64,000 nucleotides of DNA from Bacteroidales bacterium (lineage in GTDB: Bacteria > Bacteroidota > Bacteroidia > Bacteroidales > UBA932), in assembly GCA_017458265.1 (NCBI GenBank), contig JAFTFV010000023.1, positions 27,916 through 91,915 on the forward strand, read 5' to 3'. Positions 3,465 through 62,291 of the stretch are shown one piece after another. The first letter of the stretch is position 1. The number at the start of each line of letters is the position of its first letter. The notes under the pieces are model-generated. The model saw only the letters and a program-made list of their open reading frames with translations, did not search any database and was not told the origin of the DNA. The position numbers and the translations under genes are program-made.

Positions 3465-3486
3465 ACAAAAGATGATTTAGTTGAAT

Positions 3487-4332
3487 ATGGATAAAGAAAA
3501 CCTTCAGAAAATTGCATCGCAGGTGCGCCGTGACATCATCCGCATGGTTACTGCGGCCAAATCCGGCCATCCCGGCGGCTCCATGTCCACTGCGGACATC
3601 CTCACCGCACTGTATTTCGAGGTGATGGACCAGAACCCCGCCACATGGACACGTGACGGCAAGGGACAGGACCAGTTCATCCTCTCTGCCGGCCACCTGG
3701 CCCCGGTTTATTACTCTATACTTGCCCGTGCCGGTTATTTTCCGGTAAATGAGCTGGGTACCCTCCGTAAGCTGGGTTCCCGTCTTCAGGGCCACCCTTC
3801 AGTGCGCAGGAACCTTCCCGGCATCACACAGTGCTCTGGCTCCCTTGGTCAGGGTGTTTCCGTCGCAGCCGGTCTTGCACTGGCAAAGAAGCTTGACGGC
3901 GACAAGCACTGCGTGTACGTGCTGTGCGGTGACGGCGAATCGGAAGAAGGCCAGATCTGGGAAGGCGCAGAGTTCGCCACCCATCACAGCCTTGGCAACC
4001 TTATCGGCATGACAGACTGGAACGGCCAGCAGATTGACGGCCCCGTTGAAAGCGTTTCCGGCGGCGGAGACCTCCAGCTCAAATGGCAGGCCTTCGGCTG
4101 GAACACCGTAACTGCCGACGGCCACGACATGGAAGCCATCGTAACCGCCTTCCGGAAGGCAAAGGAAATGGGCAAGAAGACCAACCGCCCCACCATGATC
4201 CTCTTCAAGACAGACATGGGCCACGGCGTTGACTTCATGGCCGGCACCCACAAGTGGCACGGCAAGGCCCCTTCCGCAGAACAGTGCGAAGCCGCCCTCG
4301 CCCAGCTCGAAGAAACCCTCGGTGACTATTAG
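3487..4332 (+). CDS. tkt: Transketolase, N-terminal (TPP-binding) subunit
   Basis: SGHPGGSMS, LSAGH, LQGHP, GSLGQG and GDGESEEGQIWE motifs. Confidence 0.93.
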   Translation: MDKENLQKIASQVRRDIIRMVTAAKSGHPGGSMSTADILTALYFEVMDQNPATWTRDGKGQDQFILSAGHLAPVYYSILARAGYFPVNELGTLRKLGSRLQGHPSVRRNLPGITQCSGSLGQGVSVAAGLALAKKLDGDKHCVYVLCGDGESEEGQIWEGAEFATHHSLGNLIGMTDWNGQQIDGPVESVSGGGDLQLKWQAFGWNTVTADGHDMEAIVTAFRKAKEMGKKTNRPTMILFKTDMGHGVDFMAGTHKWHGKAPSAEQCEAALAQLEETLGDY

Positions 4333-4335
4333 TTC

Positions 4336-4363
4336 TGTCATCCCGAGCAAAGTCGAGGGATCT
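4336..4363 (+). repeat. TGTC-tagged palindromic repeat, copy 1
   Basis: TGTCATCCCGAGCAAAGTCGAGGGATCT, 3 nt after the stop of the transketolase N subunit. Confidence 0.8.
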
Positions 4364-4385: not shown

Positions 4386-5333
4386 ATGAAAAAATATATC
4401 GACACAGGAAAGAAAGACACCCGCAGCGGTTTTGGCGAAGGTCTCCTCAGGGCCGGCAAGGCCGATGAGCGCGTAGTTGCCCTCACCGCAGACCTCAAAG
4501 GCTCCCTCAAGATGGACGCCTTTGCTGCTGAATTTCCGGAAAGATTCATCCAGTGCGGCATCGCAGAAGCCAACATGGTAGGTGCAGCTGCCGGCCTTGC
4601 AATTGCCGGAAAGATTCCCTTCATCGGCTCATTCGCAGAGTTCGTCACCGGCCGAGTCTACGACCAGCTTCGTCAGGAAGTCGCTTACGGCAACACCAAC
4701 GTGAAGATTGCTTCTTCCCATGCAGGCATCACCCTCGGTGAAGACGGCGCAACCCACCAGACCATGGAGGACATCGCCCTCATGCGCGCCCTTCCCGGAA
4801 TGGTAGTGGTAAACCCCTGCGACTACAACCAGACAATGCAGGCAACTATCGCCGCTGCAAAGTATCAGGGCCCCGTTTATCTGCGTTTCGGCCGTCCTTC
4901 GGTTCCCAATTTCACAGACCCTGAAGAGCCATTTGAGATTGGCAAGGCATACGTCATGAACGAAGGCAAAGACGCCACCGTATTCTGCTGTGGCCACCTT
5001 GTATGGGAAGCCCTCCAGGCTGCTGAAATCCTTGAAGCAGAAGGCATCTCCCTCGAGGTTGTCAACGTCGCTACCATCAAGCCCCTGGACGAGGACGCCA
5101 TCATCGCTTCCATCAAGAAGACCGGCAAGGCCATCGTCGCAGAGGAGCACAACATGGCAGGCGGCCTTGGCGAAGCCATCGCCGGAGTCCTTGCTCAGAA
5201 GCACCCCGCCAAACTTGAGTTCATGAACGGCGGAGACCGCTTCGGCCAGACCGGCACCCCAGCCGAACTCATGGCCCTCTACGGCCTCGACGCCGCCCAC
5301 ATCGCCGACAAGGTTCGCGCCGTGCTCAAATAG
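4386..5333 (+). CDS. tkt: Transketolase, C-terminal subunit
   Basis: RFIQCGIAEANMVG, GEDGATHQ, GPVYLRFGR and TIKPLD motifs. Confidence 0.93.
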   Translation: MKKYIDTGKKDTRSGFGEGLLRAGKADERVVALTADLKGSLKMDAFAAEFPERFIQCGIAEANMVGAAAGLAIAGKIPFIGSFAEFVTGRVYDQLRQEVAYGNTNVKIASSHAGITLGEDGATHQTMEDIALMRALPGMVVVNPCDYNQTMQATIAAAKYQGPVYLRFGRPSVPNFTDPEEPFEIGKAYVMNEGKDATVFCCGHLVWEALQAAEILEAEGISLEVVNVATIKPLDEDAIIASIKKTGKAIVAEEHNMAGGLGEAIAGVLAQKHPAKLEFMNGGDRFGQTGTPAELMALYGLDAAHIADKVRAVLK

Positions 5334-5380
5334 CCCCGCCCACGCCCGATTGCCGGGCTTCACCCCCGCAACCCTTGGCT

Positions 5381-5567
5381 CCCATCCCTGAAAACCCCGT
5401 TTTTCAAGGATGGGAGTCCCATATCTGCCCCCCGTCCTCAAAAACGCCCGTTTTTAGGGACGGCACCCCCTCCAGGCGGCACCCCGTCCTCAAAAATGCC
5501 CGTTTTCAAGGATGGCACCCCTTCCAGGCAGCACCCCGTCCTCAGAAATGCCCTTTTTCAAGGATGA
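5381..5567 (+). repeat. REP-like tandem array A, 4 units, period 52 bp (first interval 50)
   Basis: Units start at 5381, 5431, 5483 and 5535. Consensus CCCGTCCTCAAAAATGCCCGTTTTCAAGGATGG plus linker CACCCCYTCCAGGCRGCAC. Each unit is an imperfect hairpin. Confidence 0.92.
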
Positions 5568-5607
5568 GTGGCATGTTATTCGCAGGTGCTGATGAAAAGA
5601 TATCACC

Positions 5608-6126
5608 ATGAAAAAGATTTTGCTAAGTTTGCTGGCTCTTTTGACGGTGTCAGGGAGCCTGTTTGCCCAGGGAGGCAACAAGAGCGGCATGGAGTGGATT
5701 GAAGAAGAGACAGACGGAGGCAGAAAACCAGTGATTATCAATCCTAATTATGGCGGTCCGGACTATTATAACGACCCATACATTCTGATGACCCCTCAGG
5801 AACAGATGAGGATCATATATGGAAGTCGTTACCGTAAAGCCAAGAGCAGAATCAGCGGAGGTGTCACTCTCTCGTTATTGGCTGCACCGTGCCTTGGAGT
5901 GTTTTCGGTGCTGTGCTTCCCCCATGACCTGCCTGGACTTGGCGCGATTGGGCTTGCAGGTACGGCCGCATGTGTCGGAGCGGGCATAGCGCTTTGGGCC
6001 AAAGGTCAGAGGGAGATGGACTGGATACTTGACGACTACGCCAGGAACTATGGTCCAAGGCCATATTCAAGCCTGTCTTTCGGCCCCACCCTTAGCGGAG
6101 GGATGGGACTTGCCTTGAATTTTTAA
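5608..6126 (+). CDS. Hypothetical exported/membrane protein
   Basis: N-terminal signal peptide, two hydrophobic segments, C-terminus GLALNF ending in Phe. Confidence 0.7.
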   Translation: MKKILLSLLALLTVSGSLFAQGGNKSGMEWIEEETDGGRKPVIINPNYGGPDYYNDPYILMTPQEQMRIIYGSRYRKAKSRISGGVTLSLLAAPCLGVFSVLCFPHDLPGLGAIGLAGTAACVGAGIALWAKGQREMDWILDDYARNYGPRPYSSLSFGPTLSGGMGLALNF

Positions 6127-6342: not shown

Positions 6343-7269
6343 ATGTATTACGGCAGAATATCCGAATGCGAAGTTCGGTTCAGAGAGGGCGGCCCGTTCT
6401 GGCATATATGTACCTCTCCAATTGAAACAGATATCTATTTTCGGAATGATGAGGAGCATGCAGAAGCTCTCAACATTCTGGCAATAACCGTGTTTCTCTC
6501 CAGATGTCGGCTTCTTGCCCATTCTGTGATGACTAATCATTTTCACTTTGTCCTGGAAGGAACAGAACCGGCGGTGCATGAGTTCTGGGATATCTTTTAT
6601 GACCGGTTTTCGGCATTTTTAAAAAGAACGGGAAGGCCGTATCTTGCAAAGTCGTGCAGGCCGCAGTTTATTCCTATCAAGGACCTCAAGCAGCTCAAGG
6701 ATGAGATTGCGTATGTTATACGGAATCACTTTGCAGCAGCGCCGGATTACAATATTTTTGCCTGTCTTTGGGATAGTGGACATCTGTATTTCAATCCGCT
6801 TCTGCCTTGGATGAAGGTTGGAAAAAGCGCTGCGGAGTTGAAATACTCAGAGCGCCGGAATTTCAAGCACGAACGAGACGCCTCGCTTGACCCGCGCATC
6901 ATGGTTCTGGACGGAGTTGCCATCCCTGCCTGTTTCGTTGATTATAAGCGCGCAGAATCATTCTTCGAGAACGCACGGGAGTTTTTGCTCTGGACAATGA
7001 AGAATGTGGAATCCATGGTGGAAGTAGCAAAGCGCATTGGCGAAAAACCCAACTTGACCGATACCGAACTACGCTCGGTAATATGGCAAATGTGCAAACA
7101 GAAATACAACGCTAAAGGGCCAGGTACGCTTTCTTCTGAAGACAAGGCAGAACTCATCAACTCCTTGAAGTTCGACTACAGCGCGTCCAACTCTCAGATT
7201 GCACGATGTACAGGTTTCAGGCTCTCTGAAATCAATCAGATCTTTCCCCTTTCGGCTCAAGATAAGTAG
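6343..7269 (+). mobile_element. HUH/Y1 tyrosine transposase of the REP-associated (RAYT / TnpA-REP) type with C-terminal extension
   Basis: N-terminal WHICT, HUH motif VMTNHFHFVLE, putative catalytic Tyr in IAYVIRNH followed by LWDSG (compare YIxxNP...WSS of RAYTs). Flanked on both sides by hairpin repeat arrays. Confidence 0.82.
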
Positions 7270-7459
7270 CCCCGTCCTCAAAAATGCCCGTTTTCAAGGA
7301 TGGCACCCCCTTCTGGCAGCACCTCATCCTCAAAATTGCCCGTTTTTAGGGACGGCACCCCTTCCAGACGGCACCTCATCCTCAGAAATGCCCTTTTTTA
7401 GGGGCGACACCCCCTCCAGACGGCACCCCATCCTCAAAATTGCCCGTTTTCAGGGACGG
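7270..7459 (+). repeat. REP-like tandem array B, 4 units, period 52 bp
   Basis: Units start at 7271, 7323, 7375 and 7427, with the same consensus and orientation as array A. The array fills the whole gap between the transposase stop and the EamA stop. Confidence 0.92.
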
Positions 7460-8344
7460 TTAGCGGGAGCCGAGGAAGAGAAGCACCATGCTGGCAAGGA
7501 GAAGGGCCAGGTCCAGGGCTTTGGCGCGGAGGTTCTTTTCGTGAAGCAGGAATGCGCCGATGGCGAAGCTCACCAGGACGCTGCCGCGGCGAATCATCGA
7601 CACAACGGCAATGAGCGCATCCGGGCTTGCAAGGGCCTGGAGATGGGCATAATCGGCAGCGCAGAGGAAAATGCTGATAAGGGGAATGGCCCAGGACCAG
7701 CGGAATCCCTTTGCCGATGCCACCCCGGCCGCCCTGGCTGCACGCCCATTGGTCAAAAGCAGCAGCACCCCCATCATGCCGGCCTGGTACAGCGTGTACC
7801 ATCCAAGGACCAGCTTCTTGTCAAGGCCGAGATGCTCCGGAGACATGAGATACTTGTCATAGAGCCCGCTGGCGGCACCAAGGATGACGGCAAGCACAAG
7901 GCAGACGACCCACTTGTTATGATGCGTCCGGATACCTTCCTTCTCTCCCGTGCGTTTCATGAGAAACAACGCCACAAGTGCCAGTGCAACGCCCGCACTC
8001 TGAAGAAGGTTCAGCCTTTCGCCAAATATAATCACCGCCCCGATAAGCACAAGCACCGGCCGTGAAGCATTTACCGGCCCTACAATGGTGAGCGGCAGAT
8101 GCTTCATCGCATAGTACCCGGCCACCCATGAGGACAGCACCAGCGCGCTTTTCATCAGTATCCACTTCTGCACGTCCCAGCCTTCCCAGCCAGTGGAAAA
8201 CACGAACGGAAGCATGATCAATGCCGAAAATACAGTATTCAGGAACAGCACCGGAATAACGGCGTTCCCCTTCAGTGCAATCTTTTTTGCAGAATCATAG
8301 CAGCCCAGCAGCGCTGCCGACAAGAACGCAAGCAGCCACCACAT
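7460..8344 (-). CDS. EamA/DMT family transporter
   Basis: About 10 hydrophobic segments in two repeats; IIFGERLN and FLLHEKNL EamA-type motifs. Confidence 0.85.
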   Translation of the reverse strand: MWWLLAFLSAALLGCYDSAKKIALKGNAVIPVLFLNTVFSALIMLPFVFSTGWEGWDVQKWILMKSALVLSSWVAGYYAMKHLPLTIVGPVNASRPVLVLIGAVIIFGERLNLLQSAGVALALVALFLMKRTGEKEGIRTHHNKWVVCLVLAVILGAASGLYDKYLMSPEHLGLDKKLVLGWYTLYQAGMMGVLLLLTNGRAARAAGVASAKGFRWSWAIPLISIFLCAADYAHLQALASPDALIAVVSMIRRGSVLVSFAIGAFLLHEKNLRAKALDLALLLASMVLLFLGSR

Positions 8345-20646: not shown

Positions 20647-20675
20647 TGTCATTTCGAGCGTAGTCGAGAAATCTC
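20647..20675 (+). repeat. TGTC-tagged palindromic repeat, copy 2
   Basis: TGTCATTTCGAGCGTAGTCGAGAAATCTC fills 29 of the 32 nt between the atpA stop and the atpG ATG. Confidence 0.88.
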
Positions 20676-25569: not shown

Positions 25570-27000
25570 CTACTGCCTGAAGCCACCGAAGAAGGGAAGT
25601 GACCAGGAGCGAAGCGAGAGATACCCAGTGCGTATGGCAAGGTGCATGAAGTAGGCGGCCATGAGGATATGGATGGCGGTTTCCGGTGTTGCAGAGCCGG
25701 TGGTGCCGGAAGCTGTACTGCCGGCCAGCGCTATGCCGATGAACCATACGGCAAAAAAGCCTACGGCGCAGAGGAGTGTGGAATTGCGCAGGTCCCGGCT
25801 TGCCGTTGCACCTATATAGATTCCGTCCCAGATGAAGGCGGGGCAACCGATAAGCGGCATCAGAAGCAGCCATGGAATGAACTGCCTTCCTGCATCGATC
25901 ACGGCCTGGTCCGATGTCATGAGGCCGAACAGCGCCCTCCCGCCAAGACCGTACACCAGCATGAACAGCGCGGTGACGCCAAGCCCCCAGAGGAAAGTCT
26001 GCCGCACAGTGGAGCGGACGCCGTCCCGGGACTTCTCGCCGATGAATCTTCCCGTGAGCGCCTCCCCGGCGTATGCAAATCCGTCTGTGAAGTAGCTGAA
26101 TATCATCAGCAGTTTCATGAGTATGGTGCTCACCGCCAGCATCAGGTCTCCGTACCTCGCGCTTATTACTGTAAAGCCGATATATACCGCAATCATCCCC
26201 ACCGACCGCAGAAACAGGTCCCGGTTCATCCTGAAGAACCCATCTCCGCCGGAAAAACGGCCGATTATCCGTCCGTGCGGCGGGAAGCACTGCCGGTAGC
26301 GGCGCAGCACGGCCGCCGTGCAGTACAGGAATCCGCTCCACTGGGCAATCACGGTGCCGATGGCGATTCCCCTGAACCCCAGCGGCGTCAGGGTTGCCAG
26401 CACTATGGACAGGACGATGTTGAGGAAGTTCACGAGTATATCGGCAGTCATGGGCCTCACGGAATCCTGCATACCGATGAACCATCCCTTGAAAGCGAAG
26501 AGCGAAAGCGTTGCCGGAGCCGCCCAGATTCGGATGTAGAAGTACTGCGATGCCAGATCACGCACCTCGGGAGAGCACTTCACCACCAGGAAAGCCCCCT
26601 GCACCACCAGCCACTGCACCAGTATAAGCGCCAGCCCCGACAGCAGGGCAATCCTCAGCGCCCGGAGGAGGATGGCACCGAGGGGAGATTCCTCGACTTC
26701 GCTCGGAATGACAGAGACTTCGCTCGGAATGACAGAAAGGTCGCTCGGAATGACAGACGTGGCTTTTCCGTAGGCTTGGGCGGTTAATCCGCCCGTGCCG
26801 GCACGGAGGAAGGCGAAGTTCCAGTAAAGAAGGTCGAAGAGCATCGTCCCAACTGAGATGCCGCCAATGAGCGCTGCCGATGAAAAATCTGCCGCCAGAT
26901 GCCCTGCAACGGCAATGTCCACCATGCCCACAAGCGGCACGGTGATGTTTGCCAGGATGGAGGGAACGGCAAGGCGGAGGATTTCCTTATGCAGTTTCAT
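25570..27000 (-). CDS. MATE family efflux transporter (DinF-like) with an in-frame repeat insertion
   Basis: LAVPSILANITVPLVGMVD, FLRAGTGGLTAQAYG, FTDGFAYAGEAL. Confidence 0.92.
   Translation of the reverse strand: MKLHKEILRLAVPSILANITVPLVGMVDIAVAGHLAADFSSAALIGGISVGTMLFDLLYWNFAFLRAGTGGLTAQAYGKATSVIPSDLSVIPSEVSVIPSEVEESPLGAILLRALRIALLSGLALILVQWLVVQGAFLVVKCSPEVRDLASQYFYIRIWAAPATLSLFAFKGWFIGMQDSVRPMTADILVNFLNIVLSIVLATLTPLGFRGIAIGTVIAQWSGFLYCTAAVLRRYRQCFPPHGRIIGRFSGGDGFFRMNRDLFLRSVGMIAVYIGFTVISARYGDLMLAVSTILMKLLMIFSYFTDGFAYAGEALTGRFIGEKSRDGVRSTVRQTFLWGLGVTALFMLVYGLGGRALFGLMTSDQAVIDAGRQFIPWLLLMPLIGCPAFIWDGIYIGATASRDLRNSTLLCAVGFFAVWFIGIALAGSTASGTTGSATPETAIHILMAAYFMHLAIRTGYLSLRSWSLPFFGGFRQ
26685..26755 (-). 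repeat. TGTC-tagged repeat, copy 3, with two extra 21-nt half-units, in frame in the MATE gene
   Basis: GAGATTCCTCGACTTCGCTCGGAATGACA + GAGACTTCGCTCGGAATGACA + GAAAGGTCGCTCGGAATGACA; peptide SVIPSDL-SVIPSEV-SVIPSEV-EESP. Confidence 0.9.
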
Positions 27001-27002
27001 GT

Positions 27003-27031
27003 GAGATTTCTCGACTTCGCTCGAAATGACA
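27003..27031 (-). repeat. TGTC-tagged repeat, copy 4
   Basis: GAGATTTCTCGACTTCGCTCGAAATGACA between the rsgA stop and the MATE ATG (2 nt from the ATG). Confidence 0.88.
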
Positions 27032-27036
27032 AAAAA

Positions 27037-27993
27037 TCAACGGAATTTTTTGTCTTCTTCGAGCATTCCAAGGTAGGAGTTGTAGCGCTCGGGGGCTATG
27101 TCGCCGGCGTCCAGTGCGGCCTTGACGGCGCAGCCGGGCTCGTGGGTGTGGGTGCAGGGGGTGAAGCGGCAGCCCTCCGAAACACGCAGCATCTCGGGGA
27201 AGTAACGCGCAATCTCCTCCTTCTCTACATCCACAAGGCCGAAGCCCCTGATGCCGGGGGAGTCGATGACATAACCGCCCGAAGCCAGGGGGTACATCTC
27301 GTACAGCGATGTAGTATGTTTGCCCTGGAGATGTGCAAGTGATATTTCTCCGATCTTGGGATCGAGGGAAGGGTCAAGAGCCTTGATGAGCGAAGACTTC
27401 CCAACGCCGGATTCGCCCGAGAACAGGTTCACGCAGCCGTCACATGCGGCGCGTATCTCATCCATGCCCTCTCCGGTCTTGACGGAAGTCTCTATGACAG
27501 GATAGCCTGCTCCTTCATATATTTCACGGAAACGGGCAATCTGCTCCGGCGCAACGTCCCTGTAGAGGTCTGTCTTTGAGAGGACGATGGTGGCCGGAAT
27601 GCCGTAAAGCTCGCATGTCACGAGGATTCGGTCCAGGAAGGGGAGTTTCACCTCCGGAAACAGCAGGGATACAATGAGATATGCCCTGTCTACGTTAGCG
27701 GCAATGATATGGGCCTGACGTGACAGGTTGGTGGAACGCCTTATGACGTAATTCTTTCTTGGAAGAATCTCAGTTATGACGGCCATCTCGTTCTGAGGCC
27801 CGTCAGGGCCGGGAGAATCGCCTTCCCACTCATACCTTACCCTGTCTCCAACGGCGATGGGGTTGGTGATTTCACTTGCCTTGAGGCGGATTTTACCCCT
27901 CAGGACTGCGGGAAAGACATCCCATGAAGGGAGTGCAGACAGCAGATAATGGCTGCCTGCATTCTTCACTACGGTTGCTTCGGGAAGGCTCAT
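27037..27993 (-). CDS. rsgA: Ribosome small subunit-dependent GTPase A
   Basis: GESGVGKSSL, GKHTT, DSPGIRGF, CRFTPCTHTHEPGCAV zinc finger. Confidence 0.96.
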   Translation of the reverse strand: MSLPEATVVKNAGSHYLLSALPSWDVFPAVLRGKIRLKASEITNPIAVGDRVRYEWEGDSPGPDGPQNEMAVITEILPRKNYVIRRSTNLSRQAHIIAANVDRAYLIVSLLFPEVKLPFLDRILVTCELYGIPATIVLSKTDLYRDVAPEQIARFREIYEGAGYPVIETSVKTGEGMDEIRAACDGCVNLFSGESGVGKSSLIKALDPSLDPKIGEISLAHLQGKHTTSLYEMYPLASGGYVIDSPGIRGFGLVDVEKEEIARYFPEMLRVSEGCRFTPCTHTHEPGCAVKAALDAGDIAPERYNSYLGMLEEDKKFR

Positions 27994-30419
27994 AGGCCGC
28001 ATCCGGCGTTCTCTGCGAGAGAACGGATATGGGCGTTCAGGCTGTCGTTGCCGATAAGGCTTTCCAGCGTGCAGTGCAGGCGGTAACGCCAGTAGTGGCG
28101 GGGAATTGCCGGGATGTTGATGCGTTCATCGGCAGGATTGCCCTGGTAGCGCACGTCGCCGTCCGTTGCAAGGTAGTCCTGCAGGGGCAGGATGGAAAGC
28201 ATGGCGGGCGATTTCATGTGGGCCTGAACTATCATATCGGCAACCCAGGGTTCGCAGAAATAGGGGGCGTCGCCGCTCTGGTGAAGGACCTCATTGTAGT
28301 AGCGCTGGGTGAGGGCACGGTCCTCTTCCCACCATGCGCGGAGGGGAGATGTGTCGTGCGTGCCGGTTGCGCATACGCACCAGTACGGGTAGTTTTCCGT
28401 GTGGCCGAATGCCTCCCGGGGGTCTTTTGGCATCCTCTGGATTTCCAGGGAGAGGACGTTGAGGTCTGCCATTACGGATGCCACGCAGCCGGGTATCATG
28501 CCAAGGTCTTCGCCGCAGGCAAGCATGCCGGTGGAACGCAGCAGGACAGGAAGTTTCTTCATGGCGGTTTCGCGCCAGAAGTCGTCATGCCTGTGCCAGA
28601 AGAAGTCCTCTGAAAGGCGGTTGTAGCGGTCTTTCAGCTCCCAGCTGAGGGATGCGTAGACCGATGTCTTTTCTCCGCTGATACGCGGGTGCCAGTAGCC
28701 CTTGCGGCGGGGATCCTCCACGAAGAGGACATCCGTTCCGGAGCCCTGGTGAGGGTCGAAGCCCTGGCCGCGGAGTTCGTCTTCAGAGTACGGCAGGGCG
28801 GGGGAGAAATGCCCCAGCAGGCCGCTCTTGTGCGGTACGGGAATCTCCCAGATGCGGAAGAATCCAAGGATATGGTCGATGCGGAAGGCGTCGAAATACT
28901 CTGCCATCTTGCCCATCCTGGCTCTCCACCAGGCGTAGCCGTCCTTTGCCATCTCTTCCCAGTTGTAGGTGGGGAAGCCCCAGTTCTGGCCGTCTTCGGC
29001 AAAGGCATCCGGCGGTGCTCCGGCCTGGCTGTCCATGTGGAAGAGTTCGGGGTGCTGCCAGGCATCGGCACTTACGCGGGAAACGCCGATGGGAAGGTCT
29101 CCCTTGATGGCGACTCCGTGAACGTGGGCGTAATGGACGGCGTCGCGGAGCTGCTCGTCCAGAACGAACTGGAGGTAGCAGTAGAAGCCAACCTCGGAGG
29201 CGTGTTCATCGGCAAAGGCCTTCACGGCGGGAGCCTTGTATGCCCGGAGGGTTTTCCAGGTGCTGAAATCCGGCGTTCCGTAGATGTCCCTGAGGACGCT
29301 GAAAACGGCATAAGGCAGTAGCCAGGAGCTGTTTTTGGCAACGAACTCCTTATACTCTGCCGATGCGAGGACTTTCTCTCCTTTTGCACCATTGTACAGC
29401 TTGCGGAGGTATTCCAGCTTGCAGGAGTTGACGGCTTCGTAGTCCTCTGCGTGGAGGGCTTCAAGTTCGGCCTGTTTTGCCTTGTATGCGGCATCCTTGC
29501 GCACGCCGGCGGCGGGAAGGTTGATGAACTGCGGATGCAGGGCGAAGGAGCTCACCGCGTTGTACGGATAGGAGTCCTGCCAGCTGTGGGTCATGGTGGT
29601 GTCGTTGATTGGGAGGAGCTGGATGATGTTCTGTCCGGCTTTCACGGCCCAGTCCACGAGCTTTTTGATGTCGTTGAATTCACCCACTCCGAAGCTGTCC
29701 TCCGTCTTGAGTGAGAACACGGGGACGGCCACTCCGGCACCTCTCCACGGAACGGTGGGGAAGGTGGGGGCGAGGTCTGCGATGACCAGCTTCTCTCCCT
29801 TGGGAGGGACCTCGGCAAAGAAATGGTTGGGGCCGTCTTCCCAGTGGCGGATTTCGAGGGTCTTGCTGTCTGCGATGACGAACTTGTATTCGACGGGTTC
29901 GTCAAGGTTCAGCGAGACGGACCACCAGGGGGCGCGGGCGTCTGAAAGAAGGATGACCTTGTCCCAGTTCCCCAGTACCTTGCCTGTTCCCACTATGCCC
30001 ACGGATTCATTGCTTCTGACCTCCGGGGCGGGGATTTCGAAGGTTACATTACCCTCTGCCGATGTTTCCGTGCGGGGATTCCTGAAGGAGGCGCCGTCCG
30101 GGCGGCGGAAGATGACGTCGCTGAATGCGCTGCTGTAGAAGGCCGAATTCGAGGGGCGCTCGTTCCAGCGGTTCCTGACGACGACAAGTCCCTTCCCGGT
30201 AACGTTGAGGCTGTGGTTCCTCCACTCCTTGCGGACGACGGCTCCGTCCCTGACGATTTCGAAGCCGTATCTGTCTCCGGCGTGGATGTCGCGCCCGGTG
30301 AGCATGATTTGCCAGAGGCCTCCGAAGGAGTATTCCATGGGAATCCTGCGCCTGCCCAGAACGAGTCTCACGCTCTCTCCCCAATTAGTATGGTAATGAA
30401 GTTGGATGTTGATGGTCAT
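27990..30419 (-). CDS. malQ: 4-alpha-glucanotransferase GH77 with N-terminal CBM20-like domains (DPE2-like)
   Basis: WRGAGVAVPVFSL, QLLPINDT, IKGDLPIGV, FRIDHILGFFRIW, GEDLG, THD. Confidence 0.92.
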   Translation of the reverse strand: MTINIQLHYHTNWGESVRLVLGRRRIPMEYSFGGLWQIMLTGRDIHAGDRYGFEIVRDGAVVRKEWRNHSLNVTGKGLVVVRNRWNERPSNSAFYSSAFSDVIFRRPDGASFRNPRTETSAEGNVTFEIPAPEVRSNESVGIVGTGKVLGNWDKVILLSDARAPWWSVSLNLDEPVEYKFVIADSKTLEIRHWEDGPNHFFAEVPPKGEKLVIADLAPTFPTVPWRGAGVAVPVFSLKTEDSFGVGEFNDIKKLVDWAVKAGQNIIQLLPINDTTMTHSWQDSYPYNAVSSFALHPQFINLPAAGVRKDAAYKAKQAELEALHAEDYEAVNSCKLEYLRKLYNGAKGEKVLASAEYKEFVAKNSSWLLPYAVFSVLRDIYGTPDFSTWKTLRAYKAPAVKAFADEHASEVGFYCYLQFVLDEQLRDAVHYAHVHGVAIKGDLPIGVSRVSADAWQHPELFHMDSQAGAPPDAFAEDGQNWGFPTYNWEEMAKDGYAWWRARMGKMAEYFDAFRIDHILGFFRIWEIPVPHKSGLLGHFSPALPYSEDELRGQGFDPHQGSGTDVLFVEDPRRKGYWHPRISGEKTSVYASLSWELKDRYNRLSEDFFWHRHDDFWRETAMKKLPVLLRSTGMLACGEDLGMIPGCVASVMADLNVLSLEIQRMPKDPREAFGHTENYPYWCVCATGTHDTSPLRAWWEEDRALTQRYYNEVLHQSGDAPYFCEPWVADMIVQAHMKSPAMLSILPLQDYLATDGDVRYQGNPADERINIPAIPRHYWRYRLHCTLESLIGNDSLNAHIRSLAENAGCGL

Positions 30420-35778: not shown

Positions 35779-35864
35779 GCCGTCCTTGAAAACGGGCAAT
35801 TTTAAGGACGAGGCCCCCTCTGAACGGCATGTCGTCCTTAAAAAAGGCCGATTTTGAGGACGGG
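35779..35864 (-). repeat. REP-like array C, 2 units, period 52, opposite strand
   Basis: Reverse complement CCCGTCCTCAAAATCGGCCTTTTTTAAGGACGAC...CTCGTCCTTAAAATTGCCCGTTTTCAAGGACGGC matches arrays A and B. Confidence 0.88.
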
Positions 35865-35904
35865 CGTCCCGGATTATGGGAAAGTTTGCGTATATTTGCA
35901 AACT

Positions 35905-38900
35905 ATGGACAAAAAGACATTCAACAGATGTAATTGGATAGTCGCCGTTGTGGTGTTTGCAATTTCTGCGGCGACGTATCTTTCTACTATAGAGCCCACG
36001 GCCAGTTTCTGGGACTGCGGCGAGTTCATTGCGTCATCCTACAAGCTTGAGGTGGGACATCCCCCGGGAAACCCGGTGTTCCAGCTTATCGCGAGGTTCT
36101 TCACCATGCCCTTCGGTGCCGATAAGGCCGCCGTTGCGGTGAATGCCATGAACGGAATCCTGAGCGCACTCACCATTTTCTTCCTGTACCTTACCATTGT
36201 GTTCTTTGCGAAGAGGGTGGTGGGAAGAGATTTCTCGACTTCGCTCGAAATGACAAAGGGGACGCTCGAAATGACAAAAGGGCAGGCGATTGCGATAATG
36301 GCCTCGGGCGCTGTGGGAGCGCTGGCATATACGTTCTCGGATACGTTCTGGTTCAGCGCGGTTGAGGGAGAGGTGTATGCGATGTCGTCGCTGTTTACGG
36401 CGCTGGTGTTCTGGGCGATGTGCCGATGGTATGAGACGGCGGACCAGCCCCATGCCAACCGCTGGATAGTCCTCATCGCGTTCCTGATGGGCCTTTCCAT
36501 CGGCGTTCACCTTCTGAACCTCCTTACCATCCCGGCCTTCGTGTTCATGTACTACTACAGGATGAACGAAGACAGGAAGCTGCCTTTCAAGAAGCTCCTG
36601 GGCATTTTCCTCATCGGCGTGGTGATAGAGTTCCTGCTGGTGTACATCTTCATACCGTACCTTCCCAAACTGGCTGCGTTCTTCGACCGCATATTCGTGA
36701 ACGGATTCGGCCTGCCGTATAATTCCGGTGCCGTTTTCTTCATGGTGGCTCTGCTCGGCCTTTGCTTCTGGGCGCTGTTTGCAACGCTCAAGAAAGGCAA
36801 GGTGTTCTGGAACACGGTTACGCTTTGCGTCACAACACTGGTGATGGGCTTCTCGCTCTTTGCCATAGTTATCATCCGCTCCAGCGTGAAAACGCCCACC
36901 AACGAGTACCAGCCCGATAATCCCTACACCCTGGTGCGGTACCTCAGCCGTGAGCAGTACGGCTCCACGCCGCTTCTCTACGGCCAGTATTACGACGCTC
37001 CCTATGACCTCAAGGTTACCAAATACTGGGCCCCGCTTGACGGCAAGTACGTGAAGGCCGACGGCCCCGCCGATGCAGACTATCGGCCCGAAGGAAAGAT
37101 GCTCTTCCCCAGGATGTGGTCATCGGCAGACCCCCGCTACGTGAACTTCTATGAGCAGTATACCGGCGGCAAGGGTACGAAAGTGAGGGGCGCGAAGCAC
37201 CGCAAGCCGTCTTTCGGCGCAAACCTCGCGTTCTTCTTTGACTATCAGCTGAACTGGATGTACTGGCGATATTTCATGTGGAACTTCGTAGGAAGGCAGA
37301 ACGAGATCCACAGCCCCACGCCCGGAGAACTTTTCTACGGCAACTGGGAGAGCGGCATAGGGTTTATCGACCAGCTGCGCCTTGGAGACCAGAGCAATGC
37401 TCCGGAGCCGCTCAGGAACAACAAGGGCAAGAACCACTACTATTTCCTGCCGCTGCTGCTTGGGCTTATCGGCCTTGTGTATCAGTTTGACAGGGACAAG
37501 AGGGGCAGCTGGCTGGTGTTCCTGATGTTCTTCATGACGGGCATCGCCATCGTGCTGTACCTTAACCAGCCGCCTTACCAGGTAAGGGAGAGGGACTATG
37601 CCTATGCCGGGTCGTTCTATATGTATGCCATATGGATCGGCCTTGGAGTTGCCGCGCTGTACGAGTGGATAAAGGACCTTGTCAAGGCTCCCAAGGCCGA
37701 AAAGGCCGTGGCCATTGGCGTTGGTGTGCTGTGCCTTGGCGTCCCCGCCCTCATGGCCGAAGAGAACTGGGACGACCATGACCGCAGCGGCCGATACACC
37801 GCCGTGGAAATGGCAAAGAACTACCTGAATTCTGTAGGGAAGAACGGCATCCTCATCACCCATGGAGACAACGATACCTTCCCGCTGTGGTATGCACAGG
37901 AGGTTGAGGGCGTGAGGACCGATGTCCGCATCGTGAATACCTCCCTGCTCGGAACAGACTGGCATATCGACCAGATGAAATGGGCCGTGAACGAGAGCGC
38001 TCCGCTGCCTCTCACCGTGTCCCAGCGCCAGTACCTCTACGGCAACAACGAGTACGTATATATAACGTATGACGACGGTTCGCCCATGTACATCAAGGAT
38101 GTGATGGACGTGTTCAAGGACCCCAAGATGAAGGTTCCGCTGGAGAACGGCATGAAACTGGACTTCATCTGCGCCCGCAACATAGTCATCCCCGTGAACA
38201 AGGAGAACTGCCTGAAGTACGGCATCGTCCCTGAGAAGTTTGCCGATGAGATCCCCTCCGAGATAATGCTCACCATGTCCAAGGACAAGAACTATCTCAC
38301 CAAGCCGGAACTCTTCCTTCTGGACCTCCTTTCCAACTACCAGTGGGACAGGCCGATCAACGTCCTGAACCAGGGCGGGGACCTCAATATCGGCATAAAG
38401 GACTACCTTATGTATGAGGGCTACTCCTGCAAGATCACTCCCATCAAGAACAAGGTGGGAACCACCGATGCGGGAAAGGTTGACGCACTTGAGCTTTACC
38501 GGAAGATGAACGAGGATTACAGCTGGAAGGCCATGTCCTCCAAGGGCTGGTTCGTGGATTATCAGAACATGTACACATTCCTTGGCGTAATGAGCCAGAG
38601 GCAGCTCTTCCTCACGACGGCCAATGCCCTTATAGACGCCGGAGAACCTGAGAAGGCCCTTGAGATGCTGGACAAGCTCCAGGTTTGTTTCCCGGAGGAG
38701 AATTTCCCTCTGGAAACCATCAGCGTGGGATTCTCGGGCAATGACTACATGGTTGCACAGCTCATCGAGAACTACTACTACCTGGCCGCTTCAGGACTTC
38801 TGGCCGATGAGGCTTCCGCCGCCGCAAAGGCTTCTGCCACCTCGCTGGCAGAACGCTTCGGCGGCCAGCTCCTTGACTGCGCCGGTTTCTACCTGCAGTG

Positions 38901-39054
38901 GGGCAACTACGGCAGCGGCGAATTCGAAACCGCCGGCCGCGTCCTCCTCTACCTTGCCGATGTGTGCAAGCAGTACGGCGACGAGGCTCTCTCCAAGACC
39001 CTGGAGGACCAGTTCACCGAAATGCTGGAAGTGGCCAAGGCAAGCGCTCAGTAA
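35905..39054 (+). CDS. DUF2723-domain integral membrane glycosyltransferase (GT-C-like)
   Basis: EPTASFWDCGEFIA, EVGHPPG, FWFSAVEGEVYA, RERDYAYAGSF, HGDNDTFPLWY. Start MDKKTF at 35905, after a TATATTTG promoter element at 35891. Confidence 0.85.
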   Translation: MDKKTFNRCNWIVAVVVFAISAATYLSTIEPTASFWDCGEFIASSYKLEVGHPPGNPVFQLIARFFTMPFGADKAAVAVNAMNGILSALTIFFLYLTIVFFAKRVVGRDFSTSLEMTKGTLEMTKGQAIAIMASGAVGALAYTFSDTFWFSAVEGEVYAMSSLFTALVFWAMCRWYETADQPHANRWIVLIAFLMGLSIGVHLLNLLTIPAFVFMYYYRMNEDRKLPFKKLLGIFLIGVVIEFLLVYIFIPYLPKLAAFFDRIFVNGFGLPYNSGAVFFMVALLGLCFWALFATLKKGKVFWNTVTLCVTTLVMGFSLFAIVIIRSSVKTPTNEYQPDNPYTLVRYLSREQYGSTPLLYGQYYDAPYDLKVTKYWAPLDGKYVKADGPADADYRPEGKMLFPRMWSSADPRYVNFYEQYTGGKGTKVRGAKHRKPSFGANLAFFFDYQLNWMYWRYFMWNFVGRQNEIHSPTPGELFYGNWESGIGFIDQLRLGDQSNAPEPLRNNKGKNHYYFLPLLLGLIGLVYQFDRDKRGSWLVFLMFFMTGIAIVLYLNQPPYQVRERDYAYAGSFYMYAIWIGLGVAALYEWIKDLVKAPKAEKAVAIGVGVLCLGVPALMAEENWDDHDRSGRYTAVEMAKNYLNSVGKNGILITHGDNDTFPLWYAQEVEGVRTDVRIVNTSLLGTDWHIDQMKWAVNESAPLPLTVSQRQYLYGNNEYVYITYDDGSPMYIKDVMDVFKDPKMKVPLENGMKLDFICARNIVIPVNKENCLKYGIVPEKFADEIPSEIMLTMSKDKNYLTKPELFLLDLLSNYQWDRPINVLNQGGDLNIGIKDYLMYEGYSCKITPIKNKVGTTDAGKVDALELYRKMNEDYSWKAMSSKGWFVDYQNMYTFLGVMSQRQLFLTTANALIDAGEPEKALEMLDKLQVCFPEENFPLETISVGFSGNDYMVAQLIENYYYLAASGLLADEASAAAKASATSLAERFGGQLLDCAGFYLQWGNYGSGEFETAGRVLLYLADVCKQYGDEALSKTLEDQFTEMLEVAKASAQ
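36227..36276 (-). repeat. TGTC-tagged repeat, copy 5, plus one 21-nt half-unit, in frame in the DUF2723 gene
   Basis: GAGATTTCTCGACTTCGCTCGAAATGACA + AAGGGGACGCTCGAAATGACA; peptide RDFSTSLEMT-KGTLEMT. Confidence 0.9.
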
Positions 39055-42336: not shown

Positions 42337-42387
42337 GGGATTTCTCGACTTCGCTCGAAATGACAGAGGTGATTGCTCGAAATGACA
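42337..42387 (-). repeat. TGTC-tagged repeat, copy 6, plus one 22-nt half-unit (intergenic)
   Basis: GGGATTTCTCGACTTCGCTCGAAATGACA + GAGGTGATTGCTCGAAATGACA. Confidence 0.88.
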
Positions 42388-61709: not shown

Positions 61710-62291
61710 ATGGCAGTAAAGTCCAATCTTACCAACATGGTTCTGGTGCTCGGCCTCACCTGCCTGCTTTGCTCGGCTATCCTCGGCGGTGCATACGTGC
61801 TCACAAAGGAGCCCATCGACGCAGCTGCAGTGGAGAAGACCAACAAGGCAATCGCCCAGGTGCTGCCGCACTTCACTGATGCCGAGTACAATGCCGAACA
61901 AGGCTACTACACCGCAAAAGACGGTGAGAAGCTCGTCGGCTATGCAATTGAATCCACCACTGTGGGCTTCGGCGGAAACCTCAGCCTGATGGTGGGCGTC
62001 ACTCCGGACGGAATCGTCTACAACACTTCCGTGCTGTCACATTCCGAGACTCCCGGCCTGGGAGCAAAGTGCACCAGCGACGGGAAGTTCGTCAGCCAGT
62101 GGAAGGGATTCGACCCCTCAGTCAAGAAACTCATCGTCAGGAAAGACGGCGGTGACGTAGATGCAATCACGGCTTCCACAATTACTTCCCGCGCCTATGC
62201 GCTGGCGGTGGAGAACGCCCTTGAGAAGTTCTCTGTCATTTCGGGCGAAGCCGGGAAATCTGAAAATATAGGAGGACAAGACAATGAGTAA
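61710..62291 (+). CDS. rnfG: Rnf complex subunit G
   Basis: GFGG, HSETPGLG, DAITASTITSRA (FMN-Thr). Confidence 0.94.
   Translation: MAVKSNLTNMVLVLGLTCLLCSAILGGAYVLTKEPIDAAAVEKTNKAIAQVLPHFTDAEYNAEQGYYTAKDGEKLVGYAIESTTVGFGGNLSLMVGVTPDGIVYNTSVLSHSETPGLGAKCTSDGKFVSQWKGFDPSVKKLIVRKDGGDVDAITASTITSRAYALAVENALEKFSVISGEAGKSENIGGQDNE
62234..62261 (+). repeat. TGTC-tagged repeat, copy 7, in frame in the rnfG 3-prime end
   Basis: TGTCATTTCGGGCGAAGCCGGGAAATCT; peptide SVISGEAGKS. Confidence 0.75.

Follow-up and report, generated by a model that had tools for sequence, protein, structure and literature searches.

How does a dispersed DNA repeat come to be read as part of a membrane transporter, and why is it kept there? 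This question is raised by a gene for an efflux transporter of the MATE family (25570-27000, minus strand) in a 64,000-nt stretch of DNA from a Bacteroidales bacterium of the UBA932 lineage (assembly GCA_017458265.1, contig JAFTFV010000023.1; hereafter, the window). Within its open reading frame (ORF), this gene contains a palindromic repeat that also lies between genes nearby. Here, we describe the insert, the repeat family to which it belongs, and the corresponding loop in orthologous transporters. Altogether, we consider it likely that a TGTC-tagged repetitive extragenic palindromic (REP) element entered the MATE gene in frame, grew to three units, and is carried in a permissive loop as a tolerated selfish or neutral passenger.

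The insert, its host gene and the repeat unit

The insert comprises one full 28-nt unit and two half-units. The full unit (26686-26713, minus strand) reads AGATTCCTCGACTTCGCTCGGAATGACA on the plus strand and TGTCATTCCGAGCGAAGTCGAGGAATCT in gene sense, where it encodes (S)VIPSEVEES. The half-units (26714-26755, minus strand) are 21 nt long, consist of an 8-nt spacer, the TGTC tag and the left arm, and encode SVIPSEV and SVIPSDL; on the plus strand, each of them (26714-26734 and 26735-26755) ends with GCTCGGAATGACA. In gene sense, all three units start with TCTGTCATTCCGAGCGA, and the 21-mer TCTGTCATTCCGAGCGAAGTC is duplicated in tandem, without a mismatch, across units 2 and 3. Consistently, Tandem Repeats Finder reports a period of 21 with 3.0 copies and 92% matches at 26695-26757. 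In the translation (...TAQAYGKAT SVIPSDL SVIPSEV SVIPSEVEES PLGAILLRAL...), the insert occupies 27 residues (residues 81-107), and the predicted tryptic peptide from this region is ATSVIPSDLSVIPSEVSVIPSEVEESPLGAILLR. A previous sequence-only reading of this DNA had proposed a repeat in frame at residues ~82-106, with two extra 21-nt half-units, in the loop after TAQAYG; the sequence and the ORF agree with this placement, giving 26686-26755 for the repeat, directly after TAQAYGKAT. Its description of the insert as three times SVIPSEV is correct in that there are three units in frame; however, these units are not identical (SDL, SEV, and SEVEES). In the window as a whole, the 15-nt core of the repeat (with at most two mismatches) occurs 11 times, compared with 0.15 times expected, and none of 100 shuffled sequences reached 11.

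The host gene is intact. The 476-aa MATE gene is the only long ORF across the insert site, and its product matches Pfam MatE (E=2.4e-28) and TIGR00797 (205 bits; cut-off 147). With 212.9 bits, it stays below the cut-off of the DinF equivalog model (409), so that the name DinF stands for a likeness only. An identical MATE protein is encoded on 10 contigs of a public collection, which speaks against an assembly artefact. The ratios of nonsynonymous to synonymous substitution rates (dN/dS), which are 0.134, 0.103, 0.096, and 0.095 in comparisons with the orthologs L023, L022, L024, and L028, respectively, are about 0.1 and indicate purifying selection on the gene at the sequence level. The AlphaFold2 model of the protein, based on 56 homologs, has a mean predicted local distance difference test (pLDDT) score of 83.9, a predicted template modeling score of 0.84, and 12 long helices. 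In this model, residues 84-105 of the insert form a coil (block pLDDT of 69 and 49) without structured contacts, flanked by the helices 41-83 and 106-139, i.e., transmembrane helices 2 and 3 (TM2 and TM3). Because both the N- and the C-terminus of MATE transporters are cytoplasmic, the TM2-TM3 loop with the insert is expected to be cytoplasmic as well. Thus, in the predicted structure, the insert is at a loop position that is compatible with the fold, on the cytoplasmic side of the membrane.

To which family does the repeat belong? The genome (2.13 Mb in 67 contigs, 54% G+C) contains 122 matches to the core that fall into 88 loci, and the commonest 28-mer, AGATTTCTCGACTTCGCTCGAAATGACA, is present in 29 exact copies. 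Read on the other strand, the unit has the plan 5'-TGTC, AT, stem-loop, AT, and a CT(C) tail. The stem covers eight positions, of which six are Watson-Crick pairs and two are mismatched: five Watson-Crick pairs are followed by a 2x2 mismatch (a tandem G.A on the TGTC strand) and then by one G-C pair, and the stem starts with A-T/T-A pairs that do not vary (3-24 and 4-23). Counting the flanking C.T mismatch as part of the stem leaves a loop of 4 nt (GAAG); otherwise, the loop has 6 nt. The TGTC tag (GACA on the opposite strand) is near-invariant in 60 full copies, the flanks of which have a purine-rich bias and nothing more.

The stem is supported by covariation. The variants ATTCC...GGAAT, ATTCT...AGAAT, and ATCCC...GGGAT alter both arms together; over 18 distinct variants, 100% of the cells in the six-pair helix are paired, and four of the pairs have two-sided changes. 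None of 500 shuffles reached the observed covariation values, and pairing fell to 31-50% when the partners were slid out of register. By contrast, the predicted folding energy of the unit is no better than that of shuffled sequence, which rules out a strong hairpin, while covariation retains the hairpin itself; the earlier term "palindromic" is therefore justified for a covarying but imperfect stem. At orthologous loci, other Bacteroidales carry sister families that share these termini but have clean stems (e.g., GTCATTGCCGGCTCCGACCGGCAATCTC and GTCATGCCCGGCCCCGACCGGGCATCTC). In the related families of L025-L028, the stems are clean and 8-10 bp long when the A-T/T-A start is included (6-8 pairs inside the start), and CGTC is present at the tag position in relatives such as L026 and L027. 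A known RNA family, ribozyme, or intron was ruled out, as an Rfam scan of positions 20000-44000 (E<=1) gave one chance-level match elsewhere and none on the repeat. A literature search by the encoded peptides found no papers.

A recurrently occupied loop in orthologous transporters

The 120 best-scoring homologs of the MATE protein are 429-562 aa long, apart from a 348-aa fragment (P0074). Genus relatives are 50-58% identical, and closer metagenomic orthologs were used instead for the comparison of the loop. The number of VIPSE units varies from one to three among relatives at 81-96% identity, so that their loops differ in steps of seven residues; L023 (95% protein identity) has a single unit. 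The sequence-only reading had made its case depend on whether orthologs without the repeat have the same peptide. They do not: in about 40 of 118 orthologs, the loop is only 5-6 residues long (TAQAYG-xGxxTG-ILLRAL), and the repeat-less L028 reads AYG-AREE-TGSILL (DNA of the empty allele, GCTTATGGCGCCAGAGAGGAGACTGGC). These empty orthologs and the 88 loci in the genome refute the idea that the loop is ancestral to MATE and that the intergenic copies are chance matches or gene-derived fragments, an idea that is also contradicted by the covariation of the hairpin and by the presence of the same 27-mer in unrelated genes and phyla (see below), and to which we give practically no credence.

The loop is occupied recurrently and by different elements. 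About 46 of the 118 orthologs have a recognisable REP at this position, and about 30 more have other inserts. Five families, which read VIPSEVEES, VISSEVEKS, VIAGSDRQS, VMPGPDRAS, and VIPGHDRVS, lie in the same orientation and frame. Others are read in another frame (r3; SFAGLTGES and SFPGMSRES) or lie in the opposite orientation (f; IPGQAGDD), which amounts to three element frames (r2, r3, and f) and two orientations in this loop. In addition, the loop holds inverted dimers (DQVGHD...VMPGSDRAS) and unrelated repeats (GRCANSARFAHGE and others), and half-unit duplications are common to most of the REP families found there. Two further sites in the transporters are variable, one near residue 248 in the TM6-TM7 linker and one at the C-terminus; in P0087, P0109, P0056, and others, these sites hold REP peptides (GIPGLAGDDR and, e.g., at the C-terminus, DFARDDKGDFARDDK) as well as other tandem repeats (GQTGKNGNLSTESGGFG...).

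In a tree of 118 proteins from which the loop was masked, at least 40 changes between loop classes are required, or 32 if three classes are used. Well-supported sister pairs with different loops include P0021/P0050, P0046/P0109, P0084/P0114, P0035/P0107, and P0066/P0070. In the DNA of two sister pairs, the loop lies in a divergent patch of about 60-70 nt between identical flanks, which argues that short recombination tracts carry alleles of this slot between strains. Deletions contribute as well: one allele is an in-frame internal deletion of the unit (GTCATTTCGAGC, a gap, then AAATCTC), and the "empty" SHATG allele, GGGGCATCTCATG, retains the REP tail ATCTC; a deletion between direct repeats of GGGCATC would produce it from the L026 allele. 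Because of these recombination patches and deletion footprints, the number of changes on the tree is an upper bound on the number of new insertions.

The insert might be adaptive: selection would then keep it because the transporter or its regulation benefits from a longer, acidic, and flexible TM2-TM3 loop or from the hairpin, whether in DNA or in mRNA. The persistence of the insert in orthologs at 81 to 100% identity and the presence of some insert at this loop in many lineages fit this idea, as do two observations made outside the gene and detailed below, namely that an orthologous intergenic REP is far more conserved than synonymous sites and that an identical 27-mer occurs in at least 12 phyla. 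However, the loop accommodates peptides as unrelated as VIPSEVEES, SFAGLTGES, IPGQAGDD, and GRCANSARFAHGE, with lengths from 0 to about 60 residues, and near-identical proteins differ in whether they have an insert at all. Moreover, the repeat is also found in dozens of unrelated proteins, and the insert makes no structured contact in the model. We therefore regard a benefit of the insert as improbable. The earlier suggestion of a repeat-driven route to new peptide loops is borne out as a structural outcome only, not as an adaptive one.

Copies in other genes, between genes and in other phyla

Based on gene calls made as greedy longest ORFs, which are crude and cover 93% of the genome, the 88 loci divide into 56 in long ORFs, 24 between genes, and 8 at ORF edges. 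The intragenic share is somewhat under the ORF cover of 93%, suggesting that genes are disfavoured, yet far from excluded, as sites of residence. Hosts confirmed by Pfam are methionyl-tRNA synthetase (MetRS), DnaX, UvrA, an M3 peptidase (with the insertion inside the domain), the head domain of a CCA/polyA polymerase, and an amidohydrolase; a superoxide dismutase, an MBOAT protein, GH2 and GH3 proteins, and an RNA methyltransferase were recognised by eye. UvrA (contig C12, 29589-32510) has two in-frame REP insertions, GDSSTSLGMTEGASLGMT and GDSSTSLGMT. The 224-aa Fe/Mn superoxide dismutase-like ORF (C62, 3507-4178) apparently contains three repeat-derived segments (VISSGAKGGVEKS, DQVGHDG, and CHFEQSPKGGVEKS), which is much for an enzyme of this small size.

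The unit can be read through in five of its six frames, and copies inside genes are confined to these open frames (VISSEVEKS, SFRAKSRNL, RFLDFARNDK, DFSTSLEMT, and, rarely, CHFE). The spacing between units is a multiple of three in 29 of 32 intragenic cases compared with 6 of 15 elsewhere, where spacings of 19, 20, 22, and 29 nt are found. This difference argues that only frame-preserving arrays survive inside genes, which is predicted if the repeat is translated and is not required if it is removed before translation. It thereby bears on the idea that the insert is missing from the mature protein, either because the gene is decaying or because the element is removed or bypassed at the level of RNA or translation, as in the case of translational bypassing elements. 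A removal mechanism could explain that the element is tolerated even in essential genes, although nothing points to it directly. The dN/dS of about 0.1, the restriction to open frames, the spacing of the units inside but not between genes, and the lack of an Rfam ribozyme or intron match all argue against it, and we consider such an explanation highly improbable.

Several further copies in the window can be compared with orthologous sites. Immediately upstream of the MATE gene lies rsgA (27037-28002, minus strand), which encodes the ribosome small-subunit GTPase, and the gene order GH77-rsgA-MATE is kept in relatives. An intergenic copy had been noticed near 27003; it is located at 27004-27031 (minus strand), between the rsgA stop and the MATE start, and a single compensatory pair (TTTC/GAAA versus TTCC/GGAA) sets it apart from the copy in the gene. 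At this junction (26998-27040), the REP is part of a 39-nt gain that is flanked by a TGA duplication and in which the ancestral overlapping TTG start (GTTGA) was replaced by a new ATG. L022, L023, L024, L025, and L028 have an overlapping stop/start (GTTGA or GATGA) without the repeat, and L026 and L027 have other REP families in the opposite orientation. A second in-frame insertion, with a full unit and a half-unit (36227-36276, plus strand), lies in a loop of a TMEM260/DUF2723-like membrane protein (35854-39054) and reads RDFSTSLEMTKGTLEMTKG; its orientation is opposite to that of the MATE copy. The orthologous loops contain a half-unit remnant (L022), another REP in reverse (L024), a REP dimer (L027), or nothing (L028).

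A further copy (20647-20674, plus strand) is located exactly between the atpA stop and the atpG start. It is present at the same site in L022, where it has an additional half-unit with a period of 20, and in L024, and it is absent from L027 and L028. The copies in the window and in L024 differ at 2 of 28 nt, although synonymous sites are saturated for this pair: the MATE gene, at a distance of about 5 kb, has a synonymous divergence (dS) of 1.35. This suggests either constraint or gene conversion at what is a single locus. The remaining copies comprise a diverged one with a CCC/GGG stem variant (4336-4363, minus strand) in the 53-nt gap between the ORFs 3481-4332 and 4386-5333, which by eye resemble the N- and C-terminal subunits of a split transketolase; an intergenic one with one extra half-unit at a period of 22, i.e., not a multiple of three (42338-42387, plus strand); and one near the C-terminus of a 206-aa ORF, which reads ...SVISGEAGKS... 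(62234-62261, minus strand). In 8 of 60 full copies, the start codon of a neighbouring gene is at most 6 nt from the CT(C) tail (...GAAATCTC-ATG); this is suggestive of insertion at start codons, yet not significant given a background of 7% (p = 0.06).

These sites allow us to ask whether the REPs were targeted to their slots rather than tolerated in them, by site-specific entry or because REPs preferentially enter, or land next to, a REP already in place ("REP attracts REP"). According to this model, an old colonisation would have been followed by replacement, conversion, and decay, and the short loops would be deletion footprints. Five families share the same orientation, frame, and codon position in the MATE loop, the "empty" allele retains a REP tail and can be derived from a filled one, the TMEM260 loop of L022 keeps a half-unit, and slot occupancy is far above random for about 100 copies per 2-Mb genome, all of which speak for this model. 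Against it, the r3 and f frames (SFAGLTGES and IPGQAGDD) also occur in the MATE slot, and the rsgA/MATE and TMEM260 sites hold both orientations, which argues for several independent entries. Moreover, neither a conserved target sequence nor a consistent target-site duplication was found: among pairs of filled and empty sites, one is clean and has a 3-nt TGA duplication (rsgA/MATE), the atpA/atpG site has no clear duplication, and the flanks of the 60 full copies are purine-rich only. Finally, recombination patches can spread alleles without any new insertion. We consider targeting possible, though doubtful.

Which enzyme might mobilise the element? The window encodes an atypical HUH/Y1 (RAYT-like) protein of 308 aa with NHFHFV and YVIRN motifs (6343-7269, plus strand). 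It has a paralog on contig C57 (27% identity, E=1e-31), which matches Pfam Y1_Tnp weakly (22.8-23.9 bits) and scores 17.8 bits against REP_Tyr_transpos (cut-off 80). Arrays of another hairpin repeat, with a period of about 52 bp and the core CCGTCCTCAAAAATGCCCGTTTTCAAGGATGGCACC, at 5334-5610 and 7265-7470 bracket the HUH/Y1 protein together with a small ORF (5608-6126), an arrangement that looks like a REPtron for a different repeat family. Because neither of the two HUH/Y1 paralogs is flanked by the TGTC repeat, we rejected them as a cognate REPtron, and a role as mobiliser of the TGTC-REP is unsupported. Genes bracketed by inverted REP copies 0.3-3 kb apart were not found either; ordinary housekeeping genes lie between nearby copies. 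For comparison with MITEs, which have terminal inverted repeats and a consistent target-site duplication, the only inverted repeat of the element is the hairpin itself.

The repeat is widespread. The exact 27-mer GATTYCTCGACTTCGCTCGRAATGACA, with the covarying Y/R pair allowed to vary, is present in at least 119 stretches of species-representative genomes from at least 12 phyla. Among the matches listed, 52 are from Verrucomicrobiota, 30 from Bacteroidota, and 18 from Bacillota, with fewer from Gemmatimonadota, Spirochaetota, Acidobacteriota, Chloroflexota, Planctomycetota, and others. The hosts range from soil Verrucomicrobiota, in which the copies often have a conserved upstream ACAGTAAGA, to gut Christensenellales. 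Half-unit arrays also occur in Christensenellales, Gemmatimonadales, and Chloroflexota. Carriage by phages or plasmids does not explain this spread: the 27-mer was found in five stretches of viral contigs, and plasmids gave one partial match and no full unit.

We also considered that TGTC-REPs are a cis-element that is selectively kept across phyla in heritable slots, i.e., loops and stop/start junctions, with site-directed entry, the half-unit arrays being the footprint of hairpin-loop nicking or template switching. This idea is based on the 27-mer in at least 12 phyla, the half-unit architecture across phyla, the 2 differences in 28 nt at atpA/atpG, and the slot occupancy far above random. 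We find it unlikely overall.

Relation to known repeats and proposed history

The closest relatives of the repeat described here are the CGTC-tagged REPs, a superfamily that includes RPE-4 and RPE-6 of R. conorii and dRS3 of Neisseria (Di Nocera, De Gregorio, and Rocco 2013, BMC Genomics 14:522, PMC3733652). The elements are described there as having an unpaired CGTC tag (often TGTC or CCTC), a stem of 8-9 bp with A-T/T-A first pairs, a 4-5-nt loop, and a short unpaired tail with the consensus CCA. They have no dedicated transposase, are present in five phyla including Bacteroidetes, and have copies inside genes, notably uvrA and other DNA-repair genes (PMC3733652). The repeat in the window shares the unpaired tag, the A-T/T-A start of the stem, the small loop, the short tail, the occurrence of several stem variants per genome, the absence of a flanked transposase, and intragenic copies including those in uvrA. 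It differs in that its stem is imperfect, while the published families have 8-9 clean pairs, and its tail is CT(C) and not CCA. Moreover, copies here are mostly single or form half-unit arrays with a period of 19-29 nt (tag, one arm, and a spacer of approximately 8 nt), which the parts of that paper used here do not describe; dimers here have the tags inside (TT type), while those described there are mostly HH; and about two thirds of the loci here are intragenic, which we also count as a difference. Based on the sequence features compared, the repeat fits a TGTC-tagged REP-type hairpin of the CGTC/TGTC superfamily. That no transposase lies next to it agrees with the lack of a dedicated transposase in CGTC REPs (PMC3733652).

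The sequence-only reading had drawn an analogy to the Rickettsia palindromic elements (RPEs) in protein genes (Ogata et al. 2000, 2002, via PMC10969869). The relationship is closer than an analogy, because the TGTC tag, the AT stem start, and the short tail fit the superfamily of RPE-4 and RPE-6 (PMC3733652). As with the RPEs, a dispersed palindromic repeat lies in frame in many unrelated, still functional genes at fold-compatible positions. An open ORF that is conserved on both sides of the insertion was found for MATE, the TMEM260-like protein, MetRS, DnaX, UvrA, the M3 peptidase, and PolyA_pol. The classical RPE-1 is about 100-150 bp long and encodes 30-50 residues, whereas the unit here is 28 nt (9 residues) and grows by half-units of 7 residues. 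The RPE host has a reduced intracellular genome, whereas the host here is a free-living gut or rumen member of the Bacteroidales, and translation has been demonstrated for some RPEs, while that of the repeat here is predicted. The repeat is less similar to the REP/REPIN-RAYT systems, in which GTAG-tagged REPs flank a Y1/HUH transposase (Quentin et al. 2018, PMC6006769). Both involve short hairpin repeats in tens to hundreds of copies, some inverted dimers, and HUH/Y1 genes in the genome; however, the tag here is TGTC and not GTAG, and the repeat does not flank the HUH/Y1 genes.

Based on these observations, we suggest the following history. A REP copy would have entered the MATE gene in frame, and tandem duplication of 21 nt would have increased one unit to three. 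Read-through would add a 27-residue, acidic, and disordered extension to the cytoplasmic TM2-TM3 loop, and the transporter would stay functional because this loop tolerates insertions. We infer that the insert is translated and near-neutral; instead of a designed domain, it would be a selfish or neutral passenger that the protein tolerates. The TM2-TM3 loop, the TM6-TM7 linker, and the C-terminus would be permissive slots that are repeatedly taken by different REP families and in which turnover would come from gain and loss of units, from internal deletions that keep the frame and leave footprints, and from short patches exchanged between strains by recombination. Because no dedicated transposase is adjacent, we assume mobilisation in trans or by a hairpin-dependent process.

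Several points weigh against this history. The high occupancy of the slots and the strongly conserved atpA/atpG copy are hard to explain by random insertion and tolerance alone. The multiple-of-three result is partly built in, since the label "intragenic" needs an open ORF, and with crude gene calls some of the "inside" cases near N-termini may precede the true start. The homologs were retrieved with a query that itself carries the insert, and recombination inflates the counts of loop changes on the tree, as do nodes with poor support (36 of 115 open). Lastly, the neutrality of the insert is assumed.

The general phenomenon has been published (PMC3733652; for RPEs, reviewed in PMC10969869), and our data add a new host group. 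Of added interest, albeit without a mechanism, are the high intragenic share, which includes essential genes, the recurrent slots with turnover by recombination, and the half-unit architecture together with the cross-phylum identity.

For the biology of these bacteria, the sequences suggest that working proteins of gut and rumen Bacteroidales, among them the essential MetRS, DnaX, and UvrA as well as transporters, routinely incorporate a 28-nt hairpin repeat. Orthologs would thus shift in length in steps of seven residues, what appears to gene callers and aligners as hypervariable loops would be mobile DNA, and short spurious ORFs, e.g., those reading RFLDFARNDK, would be read-through of the repeat. 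The insertions may also serve as a natural map of the insertion-tolerant loops in MATE pumps and other proteins and offer a manageable system in which to ask whether targeting, selection, or simple tolerance accounts for REP-type repeats. For the CGTC/TGTC superfamily, the cross-phylum identity and the half-unit arrays are clues that may make the question of its mobiliser testable.

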